A stretch of DNA of 13,986 nt from Naegleria gruberi. Lineage: Eukaryota. Both the position numbers and the translations under genes were made by a program. Where the stretch lies: assembly GCA_000004985.1 (NCBI GenBank), contig GG738988.1; one strand, given 5' to 3'. The notes under the pieces were generated by a model. That model did no database searches, was not told the DNA's origin, and was given only the letters and a program-made list of their open reading frames with translations. Shown piece by piece: positions 708 through 8,513 of the stretch; position 1 is the stretch's first letter; each line of letters begins with the position of its first letter.

Positions 708-1134
708 TTATTTATTAGATCGTCCCTTAGAAAAGTGAAAAGTCCACATTGGGAAGTTAAATTGCATTGAAAGTTGTGATGGAGAAGTTGAAGAGTTTTT
801 CCGTTTCCTTGTTGTTTTAGTTTGTTTGGTCAACTTGGTATTTATCAGTGTGGGTATGTTTGAGGATGACGATGAGGAAGTATTATTCGAATTAGTGGTG
901 GAAACGATTGAATTCTTTCGTTTTGGACTTGAAGCAAGTTTCGTCTTGCTATCCTTAGGATTCAGATTGGAGCTATTCGAAGGTGAGGTAATGGTTTGGA
1001 GGAGAGAATTGATACTTGTTGGGGTAGAAGGTGAAGTAGTGTTAATTGGATTATTGGTTGATTCTCCAACATTAGGCAAGTTTCCACTTTCATTGGACGG
1101 CGAATCAGCATTATTCGAAAGGTAATTTTTCTGA
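708..1134 (-). CDS. C-terminal fragment of a gene whose body lies in the assembly gap. It is a low-complexity S/T/N/P-rich tail ending SKGRSNK*
   Basis: Minus-strand ORF is open from the gap edge (1134) down to TAA (708..710 rev). Composition is strongly biased (SSSSSS run, TSPSTPTS, KRK clusters), typical of a disordered or mucin-like tail. The 1154-aa ORF call is inflated by translating N as X. Confidence 0.4.
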
Positions 1135-4124
1135 NNNNNNNNNNNNNNNNNNNNNNNNNNNNNNNNNNNNNNNNNNNNNNNNNNNNNNNNNNNNNNNNNN
1201 NNNNNNNNNNNNNNNNNNNNNNNNNNNNNNNNNNNNNNNNNNNNNNNNNNNNNNNNNNNNNNNNNNNNNNNNNNNNNNNNNNNNNNNNNNNNNNNNNNNN
1301 NNNNNNNNNNNNNNNNNNNNNNNNNNNNNNNNNNNNNNNNNNNNNNNNNNNNNNNNNNNNNNNNNNNNNNNNNNNNNNNNNNNNNNNNNNNNNNNNNNNN
1401 NNNNNNNNNNNNNNNNNNNNNNNNNNNNNNNNNNNNNNNNNNNNNNNNNNNNNNNNNNNNNNNNNNNNNNNNNNNNNNNNNNNNNNNNNNNNNNNNNNNN
1501 NNNNNNNNNNNNNNNNNNNNNNNNNNNNNNNNNNNNNNNNNNNNNNNNNNNNNNNNNNNNNNNNNNNNNNNNNNNNNNNNNNNNNNNNNNNNNNNNNNNN
1601 NNNNNNNNNNNNNNNNNNNNNNNNNNNNNNNNNNNNNNNNNNNNNNNNNNNNNNNNNNNNNNNNNNNNNNNNNNNNNNNNNNNNNNNNNNNNNNNNNNNN
1701 NNNNNNNNNNNNNNNNNNNNNNNNNNNNNNNNNNNNNNNNNNNNNNNNNNNNNNNNNNNNNNNNNNNNNNNNNNNNNNNNNNNNNNNNNNNNNNNNNNNN
1801 NNNNNNNNNNNNNNNNNNNNNNNNNNNNNNNNNNNNNNNNNNNNNNNNNNNNNNNNNNNNNNNNNNNNNNNNNNNNNNNNNNNNNNNNNNNNNNNNNNNN
1901 NNNNNNNNNNNNNNNNNNNNNNNNNNNNNNNNNNNNNNNNNNNNNNNNNNNNNNNNNNNNNNNNNNNNNNNNNNNNNNNNNNNNNNNNNNNNNNNNNNNN
2001 NNNNNNNNNNNNNNNNNNNNNNNNNNNNNNNNNNNNNNNNNNNNNNNNNNNNNNNNNNNNNNNNNNNNNNNNNNNNNNNNNNNNNNNNNNNNNNNNNNNN
2101 NNNNNNNNNNNNNNNNNNNNNNNNNNNNNNNNNNNNNNNNNNNNNNNNNNNNNNNNNNNNNNNNNNNNNNNNNNNNNNNNNNNNNNNNNNNNNNNNNNNN
2201 NNNNNNNNNNNNNNNNNNNNNNNNNNNNNNNNNNNNNNNNNNNNNNNNNNNNNNNNNNNNNNNNNNNNNNNNNNNNNNNNNNNNNNNNNNNNNNNNNNNN
2301 NNNNNNNNNNNNNNNNNNNNNNNNNNNNNNNNNNNNNNNNNNNNNNNNNNNNNNNNNNNNNNNNNNNNNNNNNNNNNNNNNNNNNNNNNNNNNNNNNNNN
2401 NNNNNNNNNNNNNNNNNNNNNNNNNNNNNNNNNNNNNNNNNNNNNNNNNNNNNNNNNNNNNNNNNNNNNNNNNNNNNNNNNNNNNNNNNNNNNNNNNNNN
2501 NNNNNNNNNNNNNNNNNNNNNNNNNNNNNNNNNNNNNNNNNNNNNNNNNNNNNNNNNNNNNNNNNNNNNNNNNNNNNNNNNNNNNNNNNNNNNNNNNNNN
2601 NNNNNNNNNNNNNNNNNNNNNNNNNNNNNNNNNNNNNNNNNNNNNNNNNNNNNNNNNNNNNNNNNNNNNNNNNNNNNNNNNNNNNNNNNNNNNNNNNNNN
2701 NNNNNNNNNNNNNNNNNNNNNNNNNNNNNNNNNNNNNNNNNNNNNNNNNNNNNNNNNNNNNNNNNNNNNNNNNNNNNNNNNNNNNNNNNNNNNNNNNNNN
2801 NNNNNNNNNNNNNNNNNNNNNNNNNNNNNNNNNNNNNNNNNNNNNNNNNNNNNNNNNNNNNNNNNNNNNNNNNNNNNNNNNNNNNNNNNNNNNNNNNNNN
2901 NNNNNNNNNNNNNNNNNNNNNNNNNNNNNNNNNNNNNNNNNNNNNNNNNNNNNNNNNNNNNNNNNNNNNNNNNNNNNNNNNNNNNNNNNNNNNNNNNNNN
3001 NNNNNNNNNNNNNNNNNNNNNNNNNNNNNNNNNNNNNNNNNNNNNNNNNNNNNNNNNNNNNNNNNNNNNNNNNNNNNNNNNNNNNNNNNNNNNNNNNNNN
3101 NNNNNNNNNNNNNNNNNNNNNNNNNNNNNNNNNNNNNNNNNNNNNNNNNNNNNNNNNNNNNNNNNNNNNNNNNNNNNNNNNNNNNNNNNNNNNNNNNNNN
3201 NNNNNNNNNNNNNNNNNNNNNNNNNNNNNNNNNNNNNNNNNNNNNNNNNNNNNNNNNNNNNNNNNNNNNNNNNNNNNNNNNNNNNNNNNNNNNNNNNNNN
3301 NNNNNNNNNNNNNNNNNNNNNNNNNNNNNNNNNNNNNNNNNNNNNNNNNNNNNNNNNNNNNNNNNNNNNNNNNNNNNNNNNNNNNNNNNNNNNNNNNNNN
3401 NNNNNNNNNNNNNNNNNNNNNNNNNNNNNNNNNNNNNNNNNNNNNNNNNNNNNNNNNNNNNNNNNNNNNNNNNNNNNNNNNNNNNNNNNNNNNNNNNNNN
3501 NNNNNNNNNNNNNNNNNNNNNNNNNNNNNNNNNNNNNNNNNNNNNNNNNNNNNNNNNNNNNNNNNNNNNNNNNNNNNNNNNNNNNNNNNNNNNNNNNNNN
3601 NNNNNNNNNNNNNNNNNNNNNNNNNNNNNNNNNNNNNNNNNNNNNNNNNNNNNNNNNNNNNNNNNNNNNNNNNNNNNNNNNNNNNNNNNNNNNNNNNNNN
3701 NNNNNNNNNNNNNNNNNNNNNNNNNNNNNNNNNNNNNNNNNNNNNNNNNNNNNNNNNNNNNNNNNNNNNNNNNNNNNNNNNNNNNNNNNNNNNNNNNNNN
3801 NNNNNNNNNNNNNNNNNNNNNNNNNNNNNNNNNNNNNNNNNNNNNNNNNNNNNNNNNNNNNNNNNNNNNNNNNNNNNNNNNNNNNNNNNNNNNNNNNNNN
3901 NNNNNNNNNNNNNNNNNNNNNNNNNNNNNNNNNNNNNNNNNNNNNNNNNNNNNNNNNNNNNNNNNNNNNNNNNNNNNNNNNNNNNNNNNNNNNNNNNNNN
4001 NNNNNNNNNNNNNNNNNNNNNNNNNNNNNNNNNNNNNNNNNNNNNNNNNNNNNNNNNNNNNNNNNNNNNNNNNNNNNNNNNNNNNNNNNNNNNNNNNNNN
4101 NNNNNNNNNNNNNNNNNNNNNNNN
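1135..4124. other. Assembly gap (2990 N)
   Basis: Uninterrupted run of n. Confidence 0.99.
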
Positions 4125-4739: not shown

Positions 4740-5099
4740 ATGGCAGCGACCAACAACAACACTGCTCATTCACCAAACTTTGAACAAATAGATAAAGATT
4801 TAGACCGCCTTCTTTTCCTTTCATGCAACCATGTTGAGAATAATAACAACAATAACCTAACTTTACACTCCATCACAACTCGTATTAATTCTGATCAACA
4901 TCCTGAACACGGCCATCATCATAATGATCATGTTCATCATCATCAACAATATCCAGCCGATAGTAGACATTTAATAACAACTTTAACAAGAACAACATTA
5001 GCACGAGATGGAGGAGGACCAGTACTTGGTTTTCCATTCGTCGACAAGGCTAGCAACATGTATAATAATAATACCGAGCAGACCAGGAATTTTAATTGA
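4740..5099 (+). CDS. Small His/Asn-rich protein (119 aa), unknown function
   Basis: ATG in aacatcATGg context, TGA at 5097..5099, AATAAA 93 nt downstream. Contains HPEHGHHHNDHVHHHQQY and an N6 run. Locally more C-ending codons than neighbours. No recognisable domain; could be a chance ORF. Confidence 0.3.
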   Translation: MAATNNNTAHSPNFEQIDKDLDRLLFLSCNHVENNNNNNLTLHSITTRINSDQHPEHGHHHNDHVHHHQQYPADSRHLITTLTRTTLARDGGGPVLGFPFVDKASNMYNNNTEQTRNFN

Positions 5100-5262: not shown

Positions 5263-7449
5263 TCAAAAGTCCTGTGAAAACTTGAAGAATATTTCTTGCC
5301 AAACTTTTTCAGGTAATTTGGAAATTTCGGTGCGATCTCTGAAAAGTTGTTTTCCATTGACCATGCTAAATGTGACAATCTCTCCCATAAATTGCTCAAA
5401 TATTGGATGATCAAGATATTTTTCACATGCTTTAAGCATATTAAAGTAATTATCAATGGATAGATTAAAGTTATTCTTGCAATAATCGATTACATATTGA
5501 ATTTCATGTTTCGTTACCATTTCAAGTAATCCAATAATTTTAACATCATCAATGTCAATTGAAATTCCATAACAATATTTGATCACAATTTCCAATAATT
5601 CTAAATCTTCTGATTCGTCAGGTGTGAATATTCCATCATCACTCAAATCACTGAAACAAGATCCACTGTCAAATAATGCATTAAACAATGTGCTAAATGA
5701 AGTCAATATAGTTTTGTGACAATATAAGTATTTGTCTTGTCCCATTTTGATTTTTACATCACTTGTTTTCTTGTCATTATATAATGATTCAATTATTTGT
5801 GGCTCAGTTTCAATTGTTTCCTCAATATTAATTGCAGTTGGTTGAGTAATGATCATTTTTGAAAAAATGGCAGTAGCATTTCTCATAATTATTGGAAGAG
5901 TTGGTAATAAAGTGTTTCCTTTTTTGGTCCTCATTTGAACAACAGCATATTCAATACAATAGTTATTCAAATGATCAAGAATGTAATTTTGAACATTGAA
6001 TTCCTCATTGCAAATTTTGAGTAAATTTTCAATTGTTTCCCATTTGAAAGTAAGATTTTCTAATGTGAGTGAGTTCACAAATTCACTTGTCAATGATCTT
6101 TTCAAATCAATAAATTCACCATTCTTGAATAAACCCAAAATGAATAAAACATCCAACATTTCTTCTTTGTTAAACTTTACCTTATTCTTATCATATATCA
6201 AAGAATCAATTAATTTTTGAATAATTTCTTGTTGTGATGAACTCATCAAACAAAGTATCTTTTCATTATTCAAAATGCCACAAAATTTTGGTGAAATTTT
6301 GTCAATGAGTGGAATGAATCCATAAATTGGCAATCCAAATAATTCATCTCTTGAATGTTTTTTCAAGTTATGAAATTCTATTTTAGAATACAAGCTACTA
6401 TTTCCAAAATGAGGATACATTCTAATATCAAAAGGTGAATCACCACTGAATCCAGCAGTTCCATTTCCAGCAACTGTTACAATATTTCCATTTTCTAATA
6501 TTTTTCTAATTCTATGATTACCATACTCAGCAATATAAATTTCATTATTTGATGAAACAAAAACACCAGCAGGACTATTCAGTTGTGCATTTGTTGCAAG
6601 ACCATTATCGCCACAAAATCCATAAGGTCCATTTCCAGCAATTGTTACAATATTTCCATTTTCTAATATTTTTCTAATTCTATGATTAATTTGATCAGCA
6701 ATATAAACTTCATTATTTGATGAAACAAAAACACATCTAGGAAAATTCAGTTTTTCTTTTGTTGCAAGACCATTGTCACCACTGAATCCAGCAGTTCCCT
6801 TTCCAGCAATTGTTACAATATTTCCATTTTCTAATATTTTTCTAATTCTATGATTATCATAATCAGCAATATAAATTTCATTATTTGATGAAACAAAAAC
6901 ACCAGCAGGACTATTCAGTTGTGCATTTGTTGCAAGACCATTATCGCCACAAAATCCATAAGGTCCATTTCCAGCAATTGTTACAATATTTCCATTTTCT
7001 AATATTTTTCTAATTCTATGATTAATTTGATCAGCAATATAAACTTCATTATTTGATGAAACAAAAACACATCTAGGAAAATTCAGTTTTTCTTTTGTTG
7101 CAAGACCATTGTCACCACTGAATCCAGCAGTTCCCTTTCCAGCAATTATTACAATATTTCCATTTTCTAATATTTTTCTAATTCTATGATTATCATAATC
7201 AGCAATATAAACTTCATTATTTGATGAAACAAAAACACCAACAGGACCATTCAGTTGTGCTTTTGTTGCAATACCATTATCACCACTGAATCCAGCAGTT
7301 CCATTTCCAGCAATTGTTACAATATTTCCATTTTCTAATATTTTTCTAATTCTATGATTACCATAATCAGCAATATAAACTTCATTATTTGATGAAACAA
7401 AAACACTCTCAGGAGAATACAGTTGCGCACTGGTAGCAAGTGAAGACAT
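5263..7449 (-). CDS. Intronless gene encoding an N-terminal six-bladed NHL-repeat beta-propeller, an alpha-helical linker and a C-terminal BTB/POZ domain with BACK-like extension (728 aa)
   Basis: ATG at 7447..7449 (rev) in aaaaaaATGt context; the ORF-track start at 7488 is an alternative TTG. TGA at 5263..5265 (rev). Six 56-aa repeats carry the NHL signature VFVSSNNEVYIADxxNHRIRKILENGNIVTIAGNGTAGFSGDNGLAT. BTB core DVKIKMGQDKYLYCHKTILTSFSTLFNALFDSG...LELLEIVIKYCYGISIDIDD. One long uninterrupted ORF. Confidence 0.85.
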   Translation of the reverse strand: MSSLATSAQLYSPESVFVSSNNEVYIADYGNHRIRKILENGNIVTIAGNGTAGFSGDNGIATKAQLNGPVGVFVSSNNEVYIADYDNHRIRKILENGNIVIIAGKGTAGFSGDNGLATKEKLNFPRCVFVSSNNEVYIADQINHRIRKILENGNIVTIAGNGPYGFCGDNGLATNAQLNSPAGVFVSSNNEIYIADYDNHRIRKILENGNIVTIAGKGTAGFSGDNGLATKEKLNFPRCVFVSSNNEVYIADQINHRIRKILENGNIVTIAGNGPYGFCGDNGLATNAQLNSPAGVFVSSNNEIYIAEYGNHRIRKILENGNIVTVAGNGTAGFSGDSPFDIRMYPHFGNSSLYSKIEFHNLKKHSRDELFGLPIYGFIPLIDKISPKFCGILNNEKILCLMSSSQQEIIQKLIDSLIYDKNKVKFNKEEMLDVLFILGLFKNGEFIDLKRSLTSEFVNSLTLENLTFKWETIENLLKICNEEFNVQNYILDHLNNYCIEYAVVQMRTKKGNTLLPTLPIIMRNATAIFSKMIITQPTAINIEETIETEPQIIESLYNDKKTSDVKIKMGQDKYLYCHKTILTSFSTLFNALFDSGSCFSDLSDDGIFTPDESEDLELLEIVIKYCYGISIDIDDVKIIGLLEMVTKHEIQYVIDYCKNNFNLSIDNYFNMLKACEKYLDHPIFEQFMGEIVTFSMVNGKQLFRDRTEISKLPEKVWQEIFFKFSQDF
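5431..5760 (-). other. Segment encoding the BTB/POZ domain (residues about 565-674 of the ATG-7449 product)
   Basis: Motif DVKIKMGQDKYLYCHKTILTSFSTLFNALFDSGS, a hydrophobic helix bundle, then LELLEIVIKYCYG, matching the BTB consensus (DVxLxVxxxxFxAHKxVLAxxSxYFxAMF). Recognised by eye only. Confidence 0.65.
6403..7404 (-). repeat. Array of six 168-bp (56-codon) NHL blade repeats inside the CDS
   Basis: Six in-frame units of about 56 aa with a 168-nt DNA periodicity. The last blade is shorter (54 aa) and degenerate at its end. Confidence 0.9.
6531..7216 (-). repeat. Two tandem copies of a 336-bp (two-blade) unit that are about 99% identical at DNA level
   Basis: Offset-336 alignment: 6531..6880 against 6867..7216 differ at only about 2-3 positions (for example caattgttac vs caattattac, aaatttc vs aaacttc). 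Flanking blades are clearly more diverged. Confidence 0.85.
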
Positions 7450-8231
7450 TTTTTTAATTGTAATCTGAACGGAAAAAACAAAATTCAAAGGTTGAAAGGT
7501 GAATTTGACAACTTGTTAATAATACCACTTTAGCAACAGGAATGAAGAACATGGCTGGCAAGAAACTAAACAGAAGCCTGCATATTGTTCATTCACTCCG
7601 ATACTTTACCAGCTTTGATGTAGCGTGATGATAACGAACAATGTTTAATAATGGTAAGGAGTGAGGTTTCAAGGATTTTTTTCCCGCCTTCTTTTTCTTT
7701 TGTTTTTTTCATCACTTCCTTTCGCGAAGTACAAAGCCACGTTGTATTGTGCTGACTGGCTGTTGGTAAAATGTTGTTGATGAATCTTCCTTTCTACATT
7801 ACAAAAGCGTACAGTCCATTACCATCTCTACTAAGGAAATGAATATCCTTAACTAATTTCTTGATGGAAATATTATTGCAAAAGGCATTCATGAAGCATT
7901 GTAATATATACTACCAAGTACCACTGGCTACGAAAAAAATGTTAGTAAAAAAGAAAGTGATTATGTACTAACAATTGAGTTTTGACTTTTTGCTGACGTT
8001 AGATAAAAAAGCCCTTCTTCATTGAGTTTGCAATATCTTACCGTGTTTCAACGCATAGTGTTGATACTTCTTTTCCAGGACATGGTTTCCCATTCCAACC
8101 CAACACTTTTTCTGTACTGGAACATATCTCTCAATTTCACACACACCAAGTTTAGTTTTAATCGTTTCCTACTAGTAGCGAAGAAAAAAAAAAAGTTTAA
8201 AAGTCGAAAGTCAACAACCACTACTTCCAAT
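7450..8231. promoter_or_regulatory. 782-bp divergent intergenic region between the two NHL genes, with putative bidirectional promoter and 5' UTRs
   Basis: Head-to-head gene starts at 7449 (minus) and 8232 (plus). Locally higher GC (7680..7780). An A11 run at 8184..8194. TACTAAC at 7967..7973 with a downstream AG at 8001..8002. Confidence 0.35.
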
Positions 8232-8321
8232 ATGTTATTTCGTTCAACACTTGTTCAATTATTGGTGGTGCTGATGTTATTATCGCTCCAACTAATCGCT
8301 CATTTATTTCTAGTTCATGCA
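8232..8321 (+). other. Predicted signal peptide (30 aa)
   Basis: MLFR plus a 22-residue hydrophobic core, then VHA|QK cleavage-like site. Confidence 0.55.
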
Positions 8322-8469
8322 CAAAAGAGTAGACCAGTTGAGTATTCTCTTGAAACTATATTGGGAGGACAAATTGGAGATGGCATGAAGGCAACCAATG
8401 TTGGAATGTATAGACCTTATGGATTGGCAGTTGACAAGAAAAACGGTAATATTTATTATGCAGAATCGG
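8232..8469 (+). CDS. Exon 1 of a secreted NHL-repeat protein gene: signal peptide plus start of the first NHL blade
   Basis: ATG 8232 in ccaatATGt context. N-terminus MLFRSTLVQLLVVLMLLSLQLIAHLFLVHA|QKS has n/h/c regions typical of a signal peptide. Then PYGLAVDKKNGNIYYAES (NHL strand). Candidate donor g|GTATGG at 8470. The in-frame upstream extension to 8022 has no coding features. Confidence 0.55.
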
Positions 8470-8513
8470 GTATGGAATTTCACATTATTTTGCTGGAGCA
8501 CCAAATTACCAAG
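8470..8513 (+). other. Candidate intron 1 (44 nt, GTATGG...CAAG), phase 1. Alternative explanation is a 1-nt frameshift
   Basis: Reading frame switches from frame 0 (open until 8558) to frame 2 (open from 8450) in this interval. A 44-nt intron equals the size of intron 3 and joins ...YYAES-A-GVGSDSLAF. No clear branch motif. Confidence 0.4.

Follow-up and report, generated by a model that had tools for sequence, protein, structure and literature searches.

Exchange among blade-coding units as the probable origin of a 336-bp repeat in a six-bladed NHL propeller gene of Naegleria gruberi

How do two adjacent 336-bp stretches of a protein-coding gene come to be almost identical, base for base? 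The question is posed by contig GG738988.1 of Naegleria gruberi, a 13,986-bp stretch (the window) that is an entire small scaffold of the NEG-M Sanger assembly (2010; 40.9 Mb, 784 scaffolds). The gene concerned, NAEGRDRAFT_82333 (XP_002668650.1, EFC35906.1), occupies 5263-7449 and encodes an NHL-BTB protein whose propeller blades are specified by a tandem array. The repeat could mark a recent duplication that added blades, an exchange that rewrote blades within an array of constant length, or a fault of assembly. We consider it probable that it is the latest product of an ongoing concerted evolution in which conversion-type replacement keeps the array at six blades, a judgement that takes in the general mechanism together with the repeat itself.

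The repeat is real and lies far beyond chance. Tandem Repeats Finder (TRF) found a single array in the window, at 6439-7440, and described it both as 6.0 copies of a 168-bp period (88% matches) and as 2.9 copies of a 336-bp period (96% matches, score 1800). A 33-mer from the repeat unit occurs six times in the window but not once in 200 shuffles. When the window is compared with itself at a shift of 336 bp, 6527-6811 matches 6863-7147 over 285 bp without a mismatch. A preliminary description had placed a ~99%-identical 336-bp tandem duplication at 6531-7216, with 2-3 mismatches per ~350 bp, and the alignment bears this out: 6531-6866 and 6867-7202 differ by one mismatch in 336 bp (6812/7148), and extension to 6880/7216 gives two in 350 bp (the second at 6876/7212). 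Over 6440-6904 the same shift yields six mismatches in 465 bp (6463, 6474, 6521, 6526, 6812 and 6876). Since blade 6 is also near-identical to blade 4, the higher-order repeat reaches beyond two units and spans ~6440-7240.

Aligning all six blades codon by codon resolves this pattern into its parts. Blades 3 and 5 differ at none of 168 nucleotides and blades 2 and 4 at five, while blades 4 and 6 differ at 13, eight of which fall in the last four codons, at the end of the array. Blades 2, 4 and 6 can be grouped as an A type and blades 3 and 5 as a B type; the two types differ at 21-22 of 168 nucleotides, or at 18-30 if the array-end codons of blade 6 are counted. Blade 1 differs from the other blades at 14-23 of 168 nucleotides, in agreement with the preliminary description, which had called both terminal blades clearly diverged; for blade 6 that statement does not hold, as the unit 6439-6606, which contains most of this blade, has 97% identity with its counterpart in blade 4 at a distance of 336 bp. 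Averaged over the protein, blade-to-blade identity is 80% at the amino acid level. The most telling unit is blade 4: its codons 1-22 are those of blade 6, and its codons 20-56, with codon 40 excepted, are those of blade 2. With a head from blade 6 and a tail from blade 2, blade 4 is a recombinant and bears the mark of a single recombination event.

Homogeneity is not confined to blades 2-5. Among the first 52 codons of each blade, 31 are base-identical in all six, and only four of the 35 columns in which the amino acid is invariant contain a silent change. Between-blade ratios of nonsynonymous to synonymous change (pN/pS) are 0.8-2.6, not significantly above 1. All six blades have been homogenised, and the 336-bp duplication is only the newest event. 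What variation exists between blades is limited to three patches, at repeat positions 2-10, 23-25 and 40-50. In the strand assignment of the predicted model these variable codons fall mainly in the d-a and b-c connections and none lies in the a-b loop or in strand c; the c-d loop has a single variable position, found only in N. lovaniensis. Under the convention normally applied to propellers, the d-a and b-c connections would make up one face, and selection may act on these loop patches.

The sister species N. lovaniensis provides an independent view of the same kind of array. An exhaustive search with the C-terminal module identified two homologous proteins (P0129 and P0213), and the corresponding genes, L001 and L002, lie on PYSW02000044.1 of a PacBio assembly; as the mean read length is 6.9 kb, a 1-kb array can be spanned. 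The N. lovaniensis array comprises 5.9 copies of 168 bp (91% matches) and again six blades, in which 30 of 52 codons are identical throughout and only three of 33 invariant columns contain silent changes. Eleven variable codons are common to the genes of the two species (Fisher p = 0.004). Blades within a gene differ by 0-22 nucleotides, whereas blades taken from the two species' genes differ by 34-43. At fifteen positions, five of them synonymous, each gene has a single nucleotide throughout its six blades and the two genes differ, and among the 924 possible 6+6 splits of the 12 blades the true species split is unique in this respect, all others giving zero fixed-difference positions. The 15 positions are of the kind that concerted evolution typically leaves, as does independent re-amplification of the sort reported for other propellers (PMC9218822).

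The two N. lovaniensis genes also record a recent change. L001 (2861-5215) and L002 (2859-5218) lie ~35 kb apart in inverted orientation. Their 98.8% identity begins 140 bp before the ATG and ends exactly at the stop codon, and the flanks on either side are unrelated. They differ at 23 of 2,217 nucleotides, and 18 of these differences are inside blade 1, which in one copy is blade 3-like, the number of blades being unchanged. In this conversion-like patch, blade replacement instead of blade addition is seen directly.

Relatives within N. gruberi, where blade comparisons were made on protein sequences, point in the same direction. Protein searches identified about a dozen NHL-BTB relatives. A word-indexed search with the C-terminal half gave five matches and missed known paralogues, while an exhaustive representative search reached N. 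lovaniensis and environmental relatives. For 28 of the 36 blades in six six-blade members, a hand tally places the nearest neighbor within the same protein, with ~5 expected at random; among paralogues as between the two species, blades cluster by gene and not by position. Internal periodicities differ among the paralogues and are of one, two or three blades: blade 2 pairs with blade 4 and blade 3 with blade 5 in P0004, blade 5 with blade 6 in P0006, and blade 1 with blade 4 and blade 2 with blade 5 in P0022. Across the paralogues, the terminal blades retain motifs specific to their position and internal blades are gene-specific; this is the edge effect classically seen with exchange inside an array. 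Distant NHL-BTB relatives have blades only 24-37% identical to one another.

Several N. gruberi gene models in this family carry aberrant blade numbers, namely three in P0064, four in P0002 and 5.4 in P0003 (NAEGRDRAFT_64406), and these could be real products of unequal crossover or errors of assembly or annotation. P0002 (928 amino acids) seems to consist of two fused partial tandem copies, with four blades in the first and a hybrid blade 2/blade 3 unit in the second, and P0003 carries a 20-residue blade fragment. The NAEGRDRAFT_82333 protein (P0001) and P0003 share a stretch of ~200 residues at 100% amino acid identity (residues 450-650, ~5500-6100), which covers helical linker and BTB and is flanked by sequence only 60-90% identical. 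The stretch points to sequence exchange between the two loci; chimeric assembly is the less likely cause. That P0001 is a mere allele of P0003 is ruled out, as the blades and the last 100 residues are only 59-85% identical.

A complete propeller is predicted from the six units. Pfam places six NHL stretches on the 728-residue protein (PF01436, E = 4.2e-43; score 143.7 bits, cut-off 20), and the AlphaFold2 model has 24 strands in six groups of four, with a predicted local distance difference test score (pLDDT) above 90 for residues 10-340, so the six blades of the preliminary description are confirmed. In Foldseek comparisons the propeller model matched the teneurin-like protein 9ifo_A (46% identity, root-mean-square deviation 2.1) and was aligned end to end with the solved six-bladed NHL domains of SOQ1 (7djj) and NHLRC2 (6g7w), which are 349-351 residues long; in both cases the alignment had 350-353 columns and a template modelling score (TMt) of 0.84. 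The designed protein Pizza6 was also among the matches (TMt ~0.85). According to the model, the six units form a complete, closed six-bladed NHL propeller, and hidden extra units are unlikely because this predicted propeller is already complete.

In the mechanism that we propose, the six 168-bp blade-coding units would recombine with one another, so that scaffold codons would stay base-identical in all blades and differences would persist only in the three loop patches. The last event would have been a non-reciprocal exchange of ~340 bp, through which the stretch from the tail of blade 4 across blade 5 into the head of blade 6 became equal to the stretch from the tail of blade 2 across blade 3 into the head of blade 4, unless the copying ran the other way. 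As to its type, it was most probably a gene-conversion tract or a sister-chromatid exchange, the array being left at six blades; both type and direction we infer from the pattern just described. Conversion-type replacement is favored on two grounds: a count of six is conserved and makes a complete structure, and replacement at constant blade number is seen in N. lovaniensis. The choice that the preliminary description offered, a recent duplication or gene conversion, remains the core of our interpretation and is extended to all six blades; the sequence fits both alternatives, since each accounts for the hybrid blade 4.

Several points weigh against this interpretation. The length of the array rests on a small gapped Sanger scaffold of 2010, the blade relationships among the N. 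gruberi paralogues rest on proteins, and, with pN/pS not significantly above 1, diversifying selection on the loop patches is only a possibility. An unequal crossover starting from a four-blade array and a ~340-bp conversion tract within a six-blade array leave an identical footprint in the sequence, and a four-blade paralogue model, P0002, exists. A simple recent tandem duplication would have started from an ancestor with blades 1, 2, 3 and 6. One unequal crossover between its A-type blades 2 and 6, at an offset of 336 bp, would then have lengthened the array by two blades and produced the hybrid blade 4. That hybrid is exactly the recombinant which such an event predicts, and the 349-bp identity tract amounts to just one period plus the crossover zone. 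Number-changing exchanges are suggested by the P0002, P0064 and P0003 models and by the hybrid blade in P0002, and diversity of blade number among close homologs is documented in other propellers (PMC9218822). We nevertheless regard simple duplication as an appreciably less probable, if serious, alternative. Every well-formed member of the family has six blades, which holds for deeply diverged members as well as for the N. lovaniensis genes from the long-read assembly; a four-blade NHL array would not close a propeller; the path from six to four and back to six takes two events as against one for conversion; and the odd-numbered models, which stem from this one Sanger assembly, could be artefacts in their turn.

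An assembly artefact, in which further 336-bp units have been collapsed or reads from different blades or paralogues merged into an over-identical or chimeric consensus, is in our judgement improbable. Arrays of highly conserved repeats are known to misassemble from short reads (PMC12222747). Local assembly quality is uncertain here because the window is a small gapped Sanger scaffold, a 14-kb leftover with gaps of 2,990 and 1,959 N in a 784-scaffold assembly, and the protein is a mosaic with its ~200 residues of complete identity to P0003. On the other side, the zone between the copy-specific markers at 6526 and 7212 measures 687 bp, which is about the length of one Sanger read, and six units give a complete propeller predicted with high confidence. 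The homogeneity of the blades needs no artefact to account for it, because the PacBio assembly of N. lovaniensis shows it to the same degree with six blades. An array of eight or more blades, as a collapse would imply, is disfavored because six blades make a complete propeller model, aligned end to end with solved NHL domains, and are also present in diverged paralogues and in N. lovaniensis. We reject, as close to untenable, the explanation that the identity is old and has been kept without recombination by strong purifying selection on the blades. Scaffold residues (VFVSSNNEVYIAD, NHRIRKILENGNI and TIAG) are indeed conserved across the family, but selection on the protein does not preserve synonymous sites, and silent positions are identical across blades within the gene; this identity together with the pN/pS ratios shows that protein-level purifying selection is not its source. 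The explanation is further contradicted by the five synonymous positions at which all blades of the N. gruberi gene differ from all those of the N. lovaniensis gene, and by the widely differing blades of ordinary NHL arrays, that of the neighboring gene included. Origin of the array as a transposon or satellite is ruled out, the array lying in frame inside a conserved protein family. Concerted evolution with replacement at constant blade number accordingly remains the reading that we prefer.

The positions of the blades, the repeat and the remaining parts of the gene are collected in Table 1. The translation of 5263-7449 is identical, at 100% over 100% of its length, to a database entry named "predicted protein [Naegleria gruberi]" (P0001). 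Besides NHL, the Pfam families above their curated cut-offs are PF25021 (TEN_NHL, E = 1.2e-39), PF00651 (BTB; score 42.4 bits, cut-off 20.5) and a linker-histone family, whose match is spurious and lacks a scoring stretch; neither NACHT nor NB-ARC is among them. In the AlphaFold2 model the propeller is followed by a low-confidence stretch (pLDDT below 50 at residues 346-372, within 6325-6426), a helical domain (residues 376-530), the BTB domain and C-terminal helices. Foldseek matched the C-terminal module to the vaccinia A55 BTB-BACK domain in complex with Cul3 (6i2m_A, TMt 0.62) and to SPOP, KBTBD2 and KLHL11, the fold matches to A55 BTB-BACK, SPOP and KBTBD2 covering 160-200 columns and being weak (E ~1e-4, 13-23% identity). 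A PDB sequence search with the BTB region gave no match, so the C-terminus is placed by fold comparison alone, and a PDB sequence search with the helical linker likewise gave no match. This architecture suggests that the protein may be a substrate adaptor of the Cul3 type in which the propeller acts as receptor. The helical linker seems specific to a Naegleria family of NHL-BTB and X-BTB proteins, and some relatives (P0125, P0132 and P0154) carry the same C-terminal module behind N-terminal regions without a Pfam match.

Table 1. Positions of the blades, the repeat and the domains of NAEGRDRAFT_82333, and of the neighboring NHL gene, in the 13,986-bp window
Feature	Position	Residues	Strand	Remarks
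NAEGRDRAFT_82333 NHL-BTB coding sequence	5263-7449	728 plus stop	minus	XP_002668650.1, EFC35906.1; intronless, complete
Blade 1	7267-7434		minus	168 bp, 56 codons
Blade 2	7099-7266		minus	168 bp, 56 codons
Blade 3	6931-7098		minus	168 bp, 56 codons
Blade 4	6763-6930		minus	168 bp, 56 codons
Blade 5	6595-6762		minus	168 bp, 56 codons
Blade 6	6427-6594		minus	168 bp, 56 codons
Near-identical tract, promoter-distal copy (tail of the blade 6 head region, blade 5, most of blade 4)	6527-6875		minus	shift-336 list; 349 bp, single mismatch at 6812
Near-identical tract, promoter-proximal copy (head of blade 4, blade 3, most of blade 2)	6863-7211		minus	shift-336 list; repeat-finder family D1
336-bp higher-order repeat, full extent	6440-7240		minus	~2.4 periods; pattern A-B-A-B-A after the more diverged first blade
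All-helical linker domain	5860-6324	376-530	minus	AlphaFold2, confident; family-specific
BTB/POZ domain	5470-5787	555-660	minus	Pfam
C-terminal helical extension, 3-box/BACK-like	5266-5787 (BTB plus extension)	661-728	minus	Foldseek
Divergently oriented NHL (teneurin-type) gene	8022-10113		plus	Pfam NHL/TEN_NHL on three open reading frames; runs into gap

The neighboring NHL gene, of the teneurin type, provides a comparison within the same window. It is divergently oriented, head to head with NAEGRDRAFT_82333 and has a signal-peptide-like start, several open reading frames and probable introns. TRF found no DNA tandem repeat array in it, and only matches of 38-41 nucleotides at 76-79% were present. 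Because this gene and the distant NHL-BTB relatives have diverged blades, the homogeneity of the array is a property of the NHL-BTB subfamily and not of NHL arrays in general.

Elsewhere in the window, runs of N occupy 1135-4124 (2,990) and 10114-12072 (1,959), with a single N at 12159. A gap-cut open reading frame on the minus strand (12160-13185) contains motifs resembling those of chymotrypsin-fold proteases (FTCAHVLY and NSCSGGPVF) and has no Pfam match. Two low-complexity open reading frames, 708-1134 (minus) and 4740-5099 (plus), are one Ser/Asn/Thr-rich and one Asn/His-rich; no Pfam family was found on the frame at 4740-5099, and no tRNA genes were found within the window. Metagenome scans with an exact 33-mer of the blade core and, guided by protein, with the C-terminal module gave no match.

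That the units of a repeat protein are homogenised by recombination is ordinary, a known mode of repeat-protein evolution. The present locus offers a clean, datable case of intragenic concerted evolution in a eukaryotic NHL propeller, with a recombinant blade still visible and independent long-read confirmation in a sister species. It also implies that the blade counts in N. gruberi Sanger models of the NHL-BTB family (3, 4, 5.4 and 6) are untrustworthy without long reads. If the loop pattern reflects selection, the family would be a candidate for a rapidly evolving recognition system in a free-living amoeba. A more far-reaching and, in our view, doubtful proposal is that the Naegleria NHL-BTB genes, of which N. 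gruberi has at least about a dozen and N. lovaniensis at least two, constitute a recombination-driven and rapidly diversifying repertoire of Cullin-3 substrate receptors. Were this so, shuffling of blades within and between paralogues, together with conversion, would pair a constant propeller scaffold with hypervariable top-face loops. Such a repertoire would be a protist counterpart of the fungal NOD-like receptors (NLRs) with repeats of "high internal conservation" (HIC) or of the nematode and plant MATH-BTB expansions, with viral or bacterial proteins, or self/non-self recognition, as possible targets. Searches that paired Naegleria with NHL or BTB gave no relevant papers, and none in the literature searched combines Naegleria with NHL repeats.

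Known systems help to place the gene, in its architecture as well as in its mode of evolution. The blades of Pizza6 are 42 residues long. With six identical NHL-derived blades, this designed protein (3ww9 and relatives) shows that an NHL-type propeller with identical blades folds, although, unlike the Naegleria protein, it is artificial and serves as proof of foldability only. In domain order the nearest parallels are SPOP and other MATH-BTB and BTB-Kelch Cullin-3 adaptors, which likewise combine a domain of substrate-binding type with BTB and a helical 3-box/BACK-like extension, the latter predicted in the Naegleria protein. As in SPOP, the receptor-type domain is N-terminal to BTB, but here it is an NHL propeller, set apart from BTB by a helical domain of ~155 residues.

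The HNWD (het-d/het-e) WD40 repeats of Podospora anserina, which belong to the HIC repeats of fungal NLRs (PMC1805685, PMC12222747), are also tandem propeller repeats kept highly similar by concerted evolution, with only a few variable positions in each repeat, located in surface loops, and with arrays prone to misassembly. In HNWD genes concerted evolution operates within and between paralogues; in NAEGRDRAFT_82333 exchange within the gene is seen, and a sign of exchange between loci appears at the protein level, outside the array. The fungal genes vary in repeat number, typically having 11 repeats, whereas the Naegleria gene is fixed at six blades; the positive selection and allelic repeat-number polymorphism of the former are at most possible in the latter, whose pN/pS ratios are not significantly above 1. 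The propeller is of the NHL and not the WD40 type, and its partner is a BTB/BACK-like module instead of NACHT and an effector domain. NAEGRDRAFT_82333 is not an NLR because it has no NACHT domain, and the likeness is one of mode of evolution only.

Closest in kind are the recently amplified, highly repetitive beta-propellers catalogued by Pereira & Lupas in 2022, such as the WRAP domain of Nostoc Npun_R6612 (PMC9218822); neither NHL nor Naegleria occurs as a term in the text or supplements searched. Those propellers share with the Naegleria array near-identical blades with few or no synonymous differences, and nucleotides that are common to all blades of one propeller and different in its homologs; their blade number can vary among close relatives. 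NAEGRDRAFT_82333 differs from them in being eukaryotic (heterolobosean) and of the NHL type, in the two-blade unit of its last event, and in the position-specific features that its first and last blades keep. Where the authors of that survey read their cases as re-amplification from one blade, the N. gruberi array looks like piecemeal exchange in a stable six-blade array.

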